Assembly (NCBI GenBank): GCA_001599295.1
Contig: BCGN01000002.1
Span: 1,426,001-1,490,000 of the forward strand
DNA from: Sporopachydermia quercuum
Taxonomy: Eukaryota
Length of the DNA: 64,000 nt
Direction of reading: 5' to 3'
Under the pieces are notes generated by a model, which worked only from the letters and a program-made list of their open reading frames with translations, was not told the origin of the DNA and did no database searches. The position numbers and the translations under genes were made by a program. Each line of letters opens with the position of its first letter. Position 1 is the first letter of the stretch. Of the stretch, positions 34,360 to 50,771 are shown in pieces.

Positions 34360-35034
34360 TTGTATAGAAAGAAAAGAGAGTTTCCCTTGAGATGCCTAAT
34401 GTATATAATAGATAAATTGATATTGGAAGCTCCTGAGAACTGGCTTTTAAGCAGTTCTGATCGTTGTTAAACCGATATTCTAGTTGGTGATAATAGATAT
34501 ATATTCTATCTAGACAGATTATGATCTGTCCTTATCTTGAGCAGATGCTTGAAGGTATATACAATTGCTGGTTTATTATGTTTGTTCGGTTGTTATTGCA
34601 GCACATATTATGTAAACAGATCACTGCGAACATATTCCTCCACTGGAAAAATATTAAACTCTCCTTCTCTCTCTATTACAAACGCTAACAACCAGCAAAC
34701 AATAATAGAAATACTACAATTAGTTATCGATATTTGATTTGAATGCTTATATCATTTCTATAGATAATTGCTATTTTCTTTCTTCTCATTATATCATTAA
34801 CCATGATCGAACCACTACAATTGAACAAGCATTCCAATTAGTCACAGGTCCACAATGAAACAATACAGAACTACGTTGAATATGCAACTATAATAAGTTT
34901 AACAATCCTTATACCTTTTCATTAAATAAACTAAAGTAGAAGACTGTTTACATAAATAATGAACAAAAACACATGATGAAATAGGAAATAAACCAATTTC
35001 ATTTCATTATTTCCTAATGCAAAGTGTCAAAGAC

Positions 35035-37078
35035 TTATTTGGCAAAGATCTTCTCAACATCAGCAATAGCTTGAGCCAAAACTTGTTGTTGGAATTTAGG
35101 GTTGGTGATTTCCTTTTGGACATTAGCAATAACAGTTTCTGCTAATTGCTTTTGTTCTCTTTGACGAACAGATGCTTCATATCTAACCCATGAGTCCAAA
35201 ACAGACTTAGCTTCAGTAGCCAACTCAACCTTTTGCTTTAATTCGAAAACTTCAGCTTCAGTCTTAACAGTTTCCTTGGAAACTTCAAATAAGATCTTGG
35301 TAGTGTCAACGACATCCTTTAATTGGGAAACAGAGTCAATTCTTTCTTGAACGGCTTCAACGTGCTTAGTTCTAGAGCTGTTCAAGATATCGCTGATGTT
35401 CTTAACAGCAGAGTCAGCGTAGTCCTTATATAAAGGAGCAACACCCTTAGAAACACCATAAGTGAAAGCTAAGAAACAAGCAAGTAAGATAGATTCTTCA
35501 TTGACAACGTACAATTGGTTGGAAATAACATAAATCAAACCAGCAGTTGAGGTAGCCAAAATACCAGTCTTAGACAAAGGACTGTTACCAGGAAGAGCAT
35601 CAATGATAGAAGCAGCCTTGGTTTTAGGATCTTCAGGGGCAGAAGAGTAGGATCTCATAGATAATGCACTAAATCAAATTCACCATCAATTGATTGGAAA
35701 ATTCATTAGACTACAATATAAGAATACTCATTTGTTGACCTTTTCCTTTGATAATATAAAGCCATATAATCATAAAATCAAACAGTCGATATCCATATAT
35801 TGTTATCATAATGATTCCATAATTGATGAAGAATGGTTAGTAATCGTTCTGAACAAAATATGTATAGATTTGAAGAAAAAAAATCCTGAATAGAGGTCTT
35901 GACGGTATGGAGATGATGAGACGTTGCTAAACCATTGATGACTATTGCTGATCGAATAGACGCGTAAGACATCAGAAATCAACTGTGCAATCATGTGGAA
36001 TAAATATCAAGAAAACACGCAGACTTTTGCATAGATATCGACATTTGGGAATGACTAACTCCAGGACAAATAACTCTAAAAAATCCAATATTTCTCTCTC
36101 GGTTGAAAGTAGTTGAATGTGGAGCAAACTTGTCGGTAATAGTTATTGAACCCTTTCCTTTCGTTATATAAGAACAATAATATGTGGTATGCTTTCATTT
36201 CACCAACCAGCAATCGAACCGAACTGCCTCAATTCTGTTTTTATTGATTTCTGTGTAATAGAGAACTGGTCATTTCCTCTCTAACTTCCTAACACGAAAT
36301 CTTACCCATCCCTATAATCAATGAACTAACAAATAAATCAATCACTTCATCAATCTCTAAAACAAGTTCAATATCCAATTCAATCACTTTTTCATTCAGA
36401 TGATCGTTTCCTCAATTAATTCTATCTTTATACTAATAATTCACATACGGAGCAACTCTGAGTCCACCCAAAGAAGGTCTAAGAGCTATAAACAATTTGT
36501 TAGAAACAAGCAATAATTATGAGTCTACACACCGTTTAGCTCAAACAATATTTATGATGAAAGATGATTTTTCAGATCGTCATTACTGTTGAACAGTTTG
36601 GATACTTCTTAATGTGACTTGTCAATGACCTTCTTCAGATCATCGATTATCTCTCCCTCATACCACTGATTCGACAATAGCTGCAACAACCGAATTNCAG
36701 TCAATTCTGAGATCAAAGCACTAGTTGATCCTCTTATGCACTGAAAGATTTCTCTTGCAATACATTTTCCATACATTTAACAATCTATCAAATTAACACC
36801 ATAAATTGTAATTGAACAACCATCCCCAAACCTCAAATCACCATACATCAACTCCCTGTACATATCACACTCATCAACATGAACCATGGACCTCATTTCC
36901 CCATCCAATACCAACCAAAATTTACATCAATTCAATCATATCCAAATCCAACATTCAGTAATATCGTCAAATCTTACAATTCATCCAAAATATCATAGAT
37001 ACCCGGCAACTAATCCAACTCCATTCCATTCATGCCCTTACCTCTCAAAGAGCTTGAAGCAGCTAATCTAAGACTCAT
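35035..37078 (-). CDS. ATP4: Mitochondrial ATP synthase subunit b (4); exons 37078-37042, 36485-36449, 35668-35035 (235 aa)
   Basis: DPKTKAASIIDALPGNS...EAKSVLDSWVRYEA. Two 37-nt exons encode the presequence MSLRLAASSSLRALRPSLGGLRVAP. Introns are 556 and 780 nt. Confidence 0.95.
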
Positions 37079-38053
37079 CTTGCTTAAGCTATTAAATACA
37101 ATTCAATTAATTTATATGTATATATTAATTGATCCTCAGTACTAAACAACTGGTGTTTTGACTGCTCATAAGTCTATCCAAGACGTTCTTTCTCTTCCTT
37201 ATTCAATTGTAATTTGTATAGTAATGTATACAATTCTAAAGGATTCACCATTCCTACTCGACGACGTTTGCCAATTCTGAGGGAGTTTTCACATTGGCCG
37301 AGAATGGAATATACGGAGAGGATAATAATTGTACGTAGTTCATCTGATAGATGCATTGTGTGGCATCTATAGGAAATGTATGGGATGGGAATGAGATGTG
37401 TACGGTAGGAGAATAGGGGCTACACCCAAACATCGCAGATTGAACATTGAGATGATAAAGAAAAAAGTTACCCGGAGTAGAATGAAGAGAGGGGTTTACG
37501 AGATATCTATATGAAAATTAGAAGGGAGTAAATGATGGATTGATAAGTGGAGATAGATAAGATGAGTATCCTAGATTCAATTGCGGTATCTATATTCATC
37601 ATTAATGAAAGAGCAGTTGAATAAAAGATCTTCTATTGATTTGGATAACATAACATGATTCTATTATTATATGTGATTTTAGTTCTTCTTATATGTAGTT
37701 TGATCAGTTTCTCTATGGCGAGCTGTGCTGAAAGCTCCCTCCTTATGTTCCATATTAAAACTTATCATGTATAGCACATTTGTTGTCTGGTATCTTCTTA
37801 CTCATGACTTCTCCGCGAGAAGATTGGATTATTCCTTCAGAAAATTGAAGAAATATCAATTCTATAAAATAATACAAGTTTAGGTTCTAACCTATGAAAT
37901 ATTCAGTATCAACCATTACGGTTGTGAATGTGTATGAAATGCCATATTATTCAGATCATTATCATGATCAGAGAATTACGTGAAGATTCTCACCTAAAGC
38001 AACTTCTTAAAGCCTATAACACATGCCAAAGGTGTTGCTGAGCATGGGGTATC

Positions 38054-39640
38054 TTATCCTCTTAATCGAGTTCTTTCCTCTAACGATGCATCACCAGACT
38101 GCCCAACAATCGAGTCAGCGGGCCTCCAGATTTGAACTTCATTATCAGCACCCACACTACACATAGTCCATGGTTCTCTAGGATTCCAGTCAATATCCAT
38201 AACACCTTGACTATGACCACCATGAATAAACAATAATTCAGGAGGACCTTCTGATAAAGCTGATTCATCTGATACAGGATCATTAATTCTTGAAACATCC
38301 CATAACATAACTCTTCTATCAGATATAGAAGCACTTGCGAGTATACAAGAATTATGAGGACTCCACTCTAATGATGAAACAGAATCCTGATGTCCAACCA
38401 TTGAATGAATCTTCTGATCGAATCTTCGCAAATCCCATAGAGTAATTGATTTATCTTCTGAACCCGTAGCAAACAAATACTCGTTGAATGGATTAAAGGA
38501 AACTGCATTAATGGGCTTTTTATGACCATCAAGATTGATCTGCGTGCTATCTGCTTGCAGACGAATATCATGAGACCTAATTGAACAGTCGTCTGCGACG
38601 CTAACAAACAAAGAATCATGACTTCGAAACCATTGAATATCGTTGACCTGTGCATTGTGTCCTTTAAACACTCTTGATGGGCCAATTATAGATGTGTTTT
38701 CTCTCCACTGTTTGATGTTCCATAAAGCAATTGTAGTATCTTCAGATCCCGTCAAAAGACTTCCTTCTTGCTGTAAATTCCACGAAATACCAAAGGTATC
38801 ACCGTGATGATGTTTCAATGTTAATTCTGGTTTCCCTTTAGGATTAGGAATACTAGGGTGTTTCGTTCTATCATATATATATGTCACACCATTGAGACCG
38901 CATGTTCCTATAATATCAGGCTTTTGGGGCATATACCTTGCTCTATTAACTTCTCCTTTATCATGTATAATCCTTTGAATGATTCTCAAATTACTTTTCT
39001 GTGTTGGATTTATACCAAACTCATTCTTATCATTATCAAATGATTTCAAATCTGGCATCTGAGACCCCAATTGTGGGAGATCTATATCACCAATCTGTAA
39101 GTACTCAGATGCTGCACCGGATGTATATGAACCTAATAACAATCTATATTTTGCATAATTGGTTGATGGATCCCTGTATTTATCATTCATACCGTTAGTC
39201 GGACATTAAGAAATGTAGATAACTTATCGATTCAGCATCCAGAAAAACACTTACACTTCGACATCTGGAAACCATTGGACTGTTAAAGAAGGCCATAGTA
39301 ATGTAGATACTATACACATATCATAAAGATATGNGGCATTTTTTTTCCAGATTCTATGCTCTATTAGGCCGTTTTAATATGTTAGTATTTAATCAATAAA
39401 TTCTGATAATAGAACTATAATCCATATCACTAATGTACAGATTCTGATAACTTCTTTAATGCTTACCTTTGCTAATCTCAGCTATATCAACTCGAAGGAC
39501 AGTTGTGTTAGTTTCAATTACCCATTTTGATATATAGTATTTTGAAATATAGTCCAGTTGCTATCAACCTTCAACTTCAGCCTATTCTCAACTACCTTAT
39601 GTCACCAAATTCACATACCATCATCAAAGTCGTCCCCCAT
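38054..39640 (-). CDS. MSI1: WD40 histone chaperone of the RbAp48 family (CAF-1 subunit Msi1); exons 39640-39619, 39481-39467, 39360-39255, 39173-38054 (420 aa)
   Basis: EHRIWKKNAxYLYD...LLWPSLTVQWFPD, GEVNRARYMPQ and GPPELLFIHGGH. MSI1 preferred over HAT2 on synteny. Confidence 0.85.
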
Positions 39641-47529: not shown

Positions 47530-49776
47530 CTAAGAATGCTTAGACCTCTTCTTCTTCTTCTTCTTTTTACTCTTCTTACTCACATTAGTATGTGAGTTAT
47601 TATTATTAGCTTGACCATTAGAAGGAGTTGCTTGAATTGTATCCTCATCGCTGACATCGTCATCATTAATTAACAACTTCCCCGTGGGTTCATCATCAAT
47701 TAATTCTCGATTCTTTGAAAGATAAGATACTAGCTCGTCATCACTCTTATCATGGTGTTCAGCATCATTATCACTTGGTGCATCTTCAATAATAGTCTTG
47801 GCTACACCATCAACAGTAACAACACTTTCGAAAAACCCACCAGGAACTGCTTTATAGCTATGCAATCTTGATGAATTTTGAGGCGACATTGCGGGGAATC
47901 TTATTGGTGATGCTCCTGATGATAGGTCNCGGCGGATAGTATTTCCATTACTCTGAAGTGGATGTAAACCAGCATTTCGCAACCGATTGTTATCAATACC
48001 TAAATTAACAGCAGAAGATTCCGTGCCGTGAACTTCAACTTCCATTGATCCATAATCTGTAGGAGGTGTAACATCCAACATTGGACTGTCAGCTCTAATA
48101 GCAGGAATATTGTCATGCTTCAAATCAACAACTCCGTTATGCAAATCGTTCGATTTATTATCATCAATCAGGTCGTGCGATTCAGTATCATCTACATGAG
48201 ATATCTCTGATGTGTTCCTGGCTGAGCCGATGCTATCAGGCTGTTTGATAGTAACAAATTTCTTAGTAGTCATGATTGGATTAGCAGCAGGATTAGATGG
48301 CATCACAATCTTTCCACTCGGCTGATGATGTTCATAATCAGCACCAATTGTACAATGCCCTTTACTTGTTCCTTGTGAAGCAGTGGTTGACTTCTCTTCA
48401 CCTGGTGAAGTAATGATTGATAGCAAGTTATTTGATGGACTTTGAGCACGCGGATGGTGGGTATCAAAATCTGACGATACTTTTGGTGAAGCATTCAAAC
48501 TATGCAGATAAGAACTTATATGTTTAGAAAACGATGAATTTGGTGCTCTTCTGATTTTATTATGAACATCCACATATACATCAGATTCATCAACAATTTC
48601 TTCCCCTATAAGTTCTTCAATAACATCTTCTAATGTTAGAACACCTAATGCTCCAGTTGGTGCACCAGGAGTTTTGGAAACAACAACCATATGAGCCTTA
48701 CCTTCTTGAAAATAATTTAAAATCTTCAAACAGGAAGTATCAGGACCAGTTTCTGGTAAAGTTGCTAAAGGAAATGACGATACAGATAAGCTATCTTCAG
48801 GATCATAAGAAATTAGCACCCTCACTAGAAGCATACCAATAAAATTATATGGCTCATTTGGAACGTGAATAGGGATTCTAGAGTAGCCGGATTTGAAGAT
48901 CTCATCGACTGTTTCTTCATTGAGAATACTATCGGCAGACATGGTATAAGTATCTTCAATTGGAGTCATGATATCTTGCACGTCTTTCTGTTTAAGATCC
49001 AAAACACTAGAAATAATAGTAACTTCGTCTTCATTCAAACGTTCTACACCCATAGTTCTATGAAGGGTAACCAATGTTTTCAAACCTGCTCTTTTATACA
49101 TAGTTCCATGGTCCTCTCCAAGGATATTATCCAATAGTATAGCAATAGGATAAGCAATAGGATACATCAAATACATGAGGGATAAGACAAAAGGCGAGAA
49201 AAAAGCCCCAACCTTCAAACCATATCTGACAGAAACAGACTGAGGAATGACTTCACCAAAAATAACAATTAAAACTGTAGATGATACAACTGCATACCAT
49301 CCACCACCTAAACAACGATCCAATACAATAGGCAGTGTCTCATTAGTTATCACGTTACCTAACAGCAAAGTAACCAGAACCCAATGTTTGCCTTTATTCA
49401 ATAATCTTAAAACACTATCAGCTGCTTTACGTTCAGAAGCATTATCACTTGATCTTTTAACAACTTGAAGATATACTTCATCTTGACCCATGAGACCCAA
49501 TGTCAATCCAGCAAACACACCACCTAACAATACAAGGATAACCGAAACACCTAAATTTATCAAAAAATCACCACCAACAGCATGTTGGCCTGGAGTTGGT
49601 TCNACTGGAGATTCACNCTTAGGTTCCAATAAAATAGTCCTAATAGGATAAGCTAATGTTTGATGAACAAACAAAGGCATAAGAGTGATCCACCAGCGCG
49701 TTGCGCTGGAGCCAACTTTAACCCCAGCACCGCTGATTTTTATATTGTTGTCGCTTCCACCATTTTTGATTGCCAT
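47530..49776 (-). CDS. MAM3: CNNM/DUF21-CBS membrane protein Mam3
   Basis: [45 protein letters not shown] pair ([25 protein letters not shown]), long disordered tail ending in a polybasic run. Confidence 0.94.
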
Positions 49777-50771
49777 GTCTATTTGTTTTATTCTTTGCCT
49801 ATTAGCAATGGAAACGAAACCTTCAGTTGGTAATTGAACTTATCAACCAACTGCTTTCAAAAAGTTAGACTGAGTCTCCGTAATCTACTAGCTAGTTTGT
49901 TCCAACTAGCACTTCCTCCACACTTAATACGCGCGAGAATGATGAGTTATCTGGCGAAGAGCTCAAAAAGCTAGGTAACTATACAACAGAATTGAATATT
50001 CACTTCAATACTGCCCAAAAAACAATTCTTAATAAGTATTACTTTAGTATCATCAAAGCTACATTGGAAACCAATGTCCAATAGATTTTATTTTGATTTT
50101 ATTTGGTATACAAGAAAAACAGTTCTGGTTGCTTAAGTGAACAGTAATTGCACTTTTGAGTTTGGAGTTGGTTAAGGGTTATGACGGAGTTTACAATGCA
50201 CTCATCTGCAAGGAAATGTATGTTAGAGGTACTTGGGGAAAACCAGTGCTGTGAGTGAGTGATAAGTAGCAAGATAAATCTTTGAAGAGAAATTGCTTGA
50301 GTTGAAGGTTTGACGCTATGTTCTCCCTTTAGCAAGTAGAAATATCAGAAATTCAAATGAACATTCAATTGAATTGTTATATTATTGTACAACTCTTACA
50401 AATCCTTCCTCAGGCCTATGACGAAGATTAAGCACTCTAAGTCATTTGACTCCAAATTGGGTAGCTTCCAAGGCGAACTCTGCATAGAACTCCAACTTTA
50501 AATTCTCTTTAGAACAAATTTGTTCCACTTTGAACTACGGAGGCAATAGAATATTATTATTTCCGAAATTTATGTTTATGTCTGAACCATCAAAATCCAA
50601 TCAAATATTCCTTTTCCCTTTGAAATTCTTTCAACACCCACTATCATTATCATGTATTCCTATCATGAAGAGCTCAATTTCTATCTTAGTTTTCCCTACT
50701 TTTCAACCTTTGATAGCACTATTCCTGTAACTTATACCCTGTGGCAAGCTCCATCGCTTTTTTCGTAAATA

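Follow-up and report, generated by a model that had tools for sequence, protein, structure and literature searches.

In the second intron of a yeast ATP4 gene the only consensus branch motif lies 168 nt from the acceptor, among neighbouring introns in which the same distance is short, and the interval is predicted to form a very stable RNA hairpin. Below, the gene model is set out first, as the acceptor follows from it, and is succeeded by the spacing, the predicted structure of the interval and the explanations that compete for it. Throughout, the window denotes the whole 64-kb stretch of DNA that was analysed.

Structure of the ATP4 gene

ATP4 lies on the minus strand at 37078-35035 and is a homologue of the mitochondrial ATP synthase subunit 4/b. 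Its long 3′ ORF (35673-35035, minus strand) matches 712 proteins at E ≤ 0.001, with PF05405 present in all 120 of the matches listed, and the best match among those listed is from Wickerhamomyces anomalus (73% identity). Taken alone, however, this ORF is missing the presequence. Joining 37078-37042, 36485-36449 and 35668-35035 yields a CDS of 708 nt, encoding 235 amino acids with one terminal stop, and the first ~35 residues of the spliced product align to the N-terminus of W. anomalus ATP4 (P0001) over both junctions. Without the short internal exon (36485-36449) the frame would be lost. The predicted acceptor of intron 2, AG 35670-35669, is supported on two counts, namely the open frame and the presequence alignment. 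The features of the gene are as follows:

37042..37078, minus strand: ATP4 exon 1, 37 nt, ATG at 37078-37076; open spliced frame, with the N-terminus aligned to P0001
36486..37041, minus strand: ATP4 intron 1, 556 nt, 5′ site GTAAGG; from sequence
36505-36499, minus strand: ATP4 intron 1 branch motif TTCTAAC, its branch A 14 nt from the final G of the intron
36449..36485, minus strand: ATP4 exon 2, a 37-nt internal exon, its peptide aligned to P0001 residues 10-22
35669..36448, minus strand: ATP4 intron 2, 780 nt, 5′ site GTATGT at 36448-36443 and acceptor TAG at 35671-35669
35035..35668, minus strand: ATP4 exon 3, encoding mature subunit b/4, stop codon at 35037-35035; from the ORF and PF05405

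Single N letters occur 59 times across the window, and one of these falls in intron 1, near 36697.

A distant branch motif in intron 2

The consensus branch motif of intron 2 is the following:

35836..35842, minus strand: consensus branch motif TACTAAC of ATP4 intron 2, with predicted branch A at 35837

The initial annotation had described this TACTAAC (35842-35836) as the sole canonical motif in the 780-nt intron, lying about 168 nt before the frame-restoring TAG. Its coordinates were confirmed, the distance from branch A 35837 to the G at 35669 being 168 nt. Within intron 2 this motif alone lies within one mismatch of the consensus, and motifs with up to two mismatches are all at least 134 nt from the AG. 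On both strands of the 64-kb window TACTAAC is found 14 times, against 7.0 expected from shuffles, and the number expected by chance in 780 nt of one strand, as calculated from the shuffle rate, is ~0.04.

The other introns of the window had also been said to have short branch-to-AG spacing, and this holds for 12 of the 13 other TACTAAC sites, at which the first non-GAG AG follows at 7-22 nt; at the remaining one it follows at 41 nt. The same 12 sites also have GTATGT or GTAAGT upstream. At six further CTAAC sites, each preceded at 72-182 nt by GTATGT, GTAAGT or GTAAGG, the first AG comes after 6-32 nt. These comparison introns were defined by motif alone, and the strictness of the branch consensus (CTAAC) among them is consequently partly circular. 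With anything above about 50-60 nt taken as distant, the 168 nt of ATP4 intron 2 is far above the local norm. By the same counts (14 TACTAAC motifs, with a strong 5′ site and a near AG at 12 of the 13 others) the window is intron-rich for a budding yeast.

A predicted hairpin between branch motif and acceptor

Most of the interval between the branch motif and the acceptor is predicted to fold into one hairpin, within which a second, weaker branch-like motif is found:

35678..35834, minus strand: hairpin of 157 nt, 62 bp in 12 helices (predicted fold), end loop GCUU at 35762-35759
35705..35711, minus strand: weak branch-like motif GTCTAAT, off the consensus at 3 positions and 37 nt short of the AG

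The predicted pairs comprise 42 AU, 13 GC and 7 GU, and every stem pairing listed in the initial annotation, including those with G-U on the transcribed strand, was recovered in the predicted fold. The hairpin starts 3 nt past the branch A and stops 8 nt short of the AG. The offsets given earlier need slight correction: 1 nt is unpaired after the motif, and 7 nt (not ~10) before the AG. The stem had further been said to enclose all intervening AGs, and all 4 are indeed inside the hairpin. Measured from the branch A, these lie at 91, 97, 110 and 126 nt; three of the four have at least one base paired, and the AG at 35747-35746 falls within an internal loop and is unpaired. Once the hairpin has formed, the predicted path from the branch A to the G is about 13 nt, which is within the local spacing range.

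The hairpin persisted when 886 nt of the pre-mRNA, starting in exon 2 and reaching into exon 3, were folded: 60 of its 62 pairs had a probability above 0.5 and the mean was 0.90. In the same fold ACUAA, within the branch motif, is predicted to pair with UUAGU at the acceptor, and five of the seven positions of the motif have an unpaired probability of 0.09-0.22. Such a pairing, if real, would hinder recognition, yet CUAA and UUAG are complementary in any intron of this kind. Upstream of the branch motif (35843-36448, minus strand), the first ~200 nt of intron 2 are predicted to pair with ~140 nt upstream of the motif, with probabilities of 0.6-1.0. [quoted passage not shown]

Stability of the hairpin relative to controls

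Folding of the 165-nt interval gave an MFE of -42.6 kcal/mol, compared with a mean of -29.1 (sd 3.2) for its shuffles (z -4.22), and none of 200 shuffles was as stable. In a second run, 1 of 1000 dinucleotide shuffles of the interval was equally stable. The 191-nt stretch that the initial annotation had put forward for folding gave an energy of -44.9 and a z of -3.22, with 0/200 shuffles as stable.

Moreover, the interval was compared with the rest of the window by folding 7329 stretches of 165 nt from both strands of the 64 kb, at a step of 15. On raw energy alone, 125 of the 7329 reach the stability of the hairpin, at 40-50% GC versus 25% for the hairpin itself. Once GC had been regressed out, no stretch among the 7329 showed a residual as low as that of the hairpin interval, and not one of 240 GC-matched stretches reaches -42.6 kcal/mol. 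The number of pairs (62) likewise exceeds the maximum in any scanned stretch (60). The second most extreme GC-adjusted fold is found at 49691-49855 (minus strand; -55.1 kcal/mol, residual -22.0), within a long minus-strand open frame.

Closure of the ends was not distinctive. An MFE path of at most 10 was found in 203 of 1000 shuffles and in 868 of 7329 genomic windows, and the ensemble mean path of the hairpin interval was reached by 20 of 300 shuffles. Since end closure is this common in controls, the case rests on the stability of the hairpin and its exact placement, not on bridging. The transcribed strand has an energy advantage of 9.2 kcal/mol. In 172 of 688 random windows the difference was at least as large, and the strand asymmetry does not indicate selection at the RNA level.

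Response to temperature

The initial annotation had gone on to suggest that splicing of this intron could respond to temperature or other conditions. The predictions lend this no support, both the fold and the shortened path being unchanged over 20-50 °C. In the APE2 RNA thermosensor, structure between the branch and the acceptor reportedly governs the choice of acceptor, and the placement of the ATP4 hairpin is the same; the APE2 element, however, is said to melt in the physiological range. A thermosensor of the APE2 type was rejected in silico, as the MFE structure was the same at 20, 25, 30, 37, 42 and 45 °C and the ensemble path was 10.0-11.4 over the whole range. On these predictions the hairpin seems to be a constitutive structure and not a switch, and a regulatory use of it is unsupported.

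A candidate downstream-stem intron

ATP4 intron 2 is probably a distant-branch-point intron with a downstream stem, of the class to which COF1 and UBC13 belong. As far as computation goes this structural reading is supported, a stable predicted hairpin filling the interval from branch to AG, enclosing the cryptic AGs and pairing GTCTAAT. The U2 snRNP would use TACTAAC, with branch A 35837, and the 157-nt hairpin would fold as soon as it is transcribed, collapsing the 168-nt spacing to a path of ~13 nt and hiding the four intervening AGs together with the weak GTCTAAT. Because these would be hidden, AG 35670-35669 would be the first exposed AG, and it is this AG that we propose to be used in the second step, where it would restore the ATP4 frame. 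Branching at 35837, use of this acceptor and a dependence of splicing on the stem are what we infer from the fold and the gene model.

Introns of this kind are known from baker's yeast. In COF1 and UBC13, breaking and compensatory mutants demonstrated that a stem shortens the branch-acceptor distance and masks cryptic acceptors (Gahura et al. 2011, PMC3239191). In the same paper, stems are predicted in almost all distant-branch introns and in other Saccharomycotina, and the maximal branch-acceptor spacing is given as 166 nt in Saccharomyces, 471 nt in C. glabrata and 185 nt in K. lactis (PMC3239191). Of 88 S. cerevisiae introns probed with DMS in vivo, 21 had downstream stems, some of which occlude cryptic 3′ sites (PMC12350175).

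ATP4 intron 2 resembles COF1 and UBC13, as described there, in that a long spacing is filled by a stem-loop, a predicted one in ATP4, which would likewise shorten the structural distance and mask cryptic AGs near the branch. The first AG past the stem is used in COF1 and UBC13, and the same is proposed here. In contrast to those two introns, this one belongs to ATP4 and to another yeast lineage (the best ATP4 match being the 73% of W. anomalus), and its spacing is longer, at 168 nt against the Saccharomyces maximum of 166 nt given in PMC3239191. Its hairpin is also single, nearly uninterrupted and 62 bp long, and the neighbouring introns of the window are short-spaced. A distant-branch intron in K. 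lactis actin, cited in PMC3239191, is comparable in having a long structured interval in a yeast outside Saccharomyces, one that is not conserved between genera, albeit in a different gene. The downstream-stem class of PMC12350175 comprises stems that are 6 bp or longer and backed by probing, whereas the ATP4 stem is predicted and far longer. On its predicted structure, ATP4 intron 2 fits this class in spacing, stability, placement and enclosed AGs.

An element of this type is already established and well documented in baker's yeast, and as such it opens no new question and would not surprise a specialist. What is notable is that the stem is so long and regular, and that it occurs where neighbouring introns are tightly spaced. 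ATP4 intron 2 would extend the stem mechanism proven in S. cerevisiae with a clean and extreme case (62 bp, 168 nt) from a respiratory-chain gene of another budding-yeast lineage, and could be a handy natural substrate for learning how far structure compensates for spacing.

Branching from a proximal site

The branch could instead be formed at a proximal, non-consensus site, either GTCTAAT (branch A 35706) or another weak site, in which case TACTAAC would be present by chance and the hairpin would be irrelevant, or even inhibitory, to splicing. The 37 nt from GTCTAAT to the AG would be ordinary in S. cerevisiae, for which PMC3239191 gives a median spacing near 31 nt, but it is longer than the 6-32 nt found at the 18 candidate introns of the window that have a nearby strong 5′ site. 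Intron 1 of ATP4 itself has a motif other than TACTAAC (TTCTAAC), and the chance expectation of ~0.04 TACTAAC in an intron of this size, whilst small, is not negligible. However, GTCTAAT is off consensus at 3 positions, the final C included, whereas all 19 motif-defined candidate sites in the window end in CTAAC, a comparison that is partly circular. It is also buried in the predicted hairpin, with an unpaired probability of ≤0.06 at each of its 7 positions in the 886-nt context fold. Moreover, a proximal branch leaves unexplained why the structure that is the most stable in the window, when adjusted for GC, starts 1 nt past TACTAAC. We consider such a branch unlikely.

Homologues and the origin of the hairpin

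Metagenomes were scanned with an 18-sequence ATP4 alignment, and the best 80 of 365 confirmed loci were kept. No comparable hairpin intron was found among these best 80 of 365 metagenomic ATP4 loci. The closest of the 80, L001 (71%) and L006 (66%), lack introns in the region upstream of the match, and therefore ATP4 introns are not universal. Two DNA runs of one organism, possibly the one from which this DNA comes (X1 and X2), were identical over all 2201 nt and so offered no variation for an analysis of covariation. Run X4 contained one 75-nt piece, located in the ATP4 coding exon, and run X5 gave no match.

Amongst the 120 homologues listed, the predicted N-termini of six (P0002, P0007, P0011, P0098, P0103, P0111) include the translated 3′ end of an intron placed like intron 2, and each of the six carries a TACTAAC-compatible tripeptide 2-6 residues ahead of the exon. 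These peptides, from which the spacing in relatives was deduced in place of DNA, hint at a short spacing there, in which case the hairpin may have been added in this lineage alone.

A lineage-specific insertion is also what would be expected if the hairpin were a palindrome at the DNA level, for instance one left behind by the insertion of an inverted repeat, tolerated and unselected, with no role beyond not blocking splicing. That the strand asymmetry is not significant agrees with this. A repeated element within the window was rejected, however, as the 64 kb contain no second copy of the hairpin (the best other match being 31 nt at 84%), and by eye no target-site duplication was seen at the hairpin ends. 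Moreover, the transcribed strand has 7 G-U pairs and no more than one C-A opposition, a weak hint of maintenance at the RNA level. Even if the sequence had been inserted, a branch 168 nt from its AG would still need the fold in order to splice, given that splicing of ACT1 was abolished when its spacing was stretched to about 120 nt (PMC3239191). A palindrome with no function in splicing is in our judgement distinctly improbable. As the 168-nt spacing would need the fold either way, an origin by insertion and a function in splicing are not mutually exclusive.

Alternatively, the intron might house, in the form of this hairpin, an independent functional RNA or a signal for RNA processing, namely a snoRNA, a target of RNase III (Rnt1), a precursor of small RNAs or a regulator that binds protein. 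The stability of the hairpin is exceptional, and yeast introns do host snoRNAs and regulatory structures, but this reading is very improbable indeed: the structure consists of one hairpin and lacks H/ACA and C/D boxes, its end loop is GCUU and not the AGNN loop that Rnt1 targets carry, and no Rfam family comes near its gathering score over 35000-37200. In that region Rfam 15 gave 12 matches at E up to 10, all far under gathering scores. The best of those overlapping the hairpin, SCARNA7, scored 10.2 bits (E 9.9) where 65 would be needed, and a snoRNA or other Rfam family was rejected on this basis.

Returning to a distant-branch intron with a downstream stem, its history can be sketched speculatively. 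An ancestral, short-spaced ATP4 intron would have gained a 157-nt palindromic insertion in this lineage, which would have left the splicing of this core ATP synthase subunit reliant on co-transcriptional folding and possibly on helicases or growth conditions. We regard this scenario as doubtful. If true, it would provide a natural example of structure-dependent introns arising in a yeast whose spacing is constrained (6-32 nt elsewhere in the window).

Gene neighbourhood and intron positions in other loci

Further observations were made on the metagenomic loci. Many fungal ATP4 loci (L018, L021, L039, L043-L045, L048 and others) have CTRAY ~75-90 nt before the tblastn match, just 5′ of the coding sequence equivalent to exon 2, the region with "RLRP". 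Intron 1 may therefore occupy a position that is ancient in Ascomycota, whereas the position of intron 2 is not common to those CTRAY-bearing loci.

Lastly, a WD40-repeat gene is found directly upstream of ATP4 both in the window (38054-39205, minus strand) and on the metagenomic yeast contig L006 (900-1490). Since this gene adjoins ATP4 upstream in both, the ATP4 neighbourhood is conserved between them. The WD40 gene of the window seems to have 5′ introns of its own, with GACTAAC at 39200 and TACTAAC at 39387.
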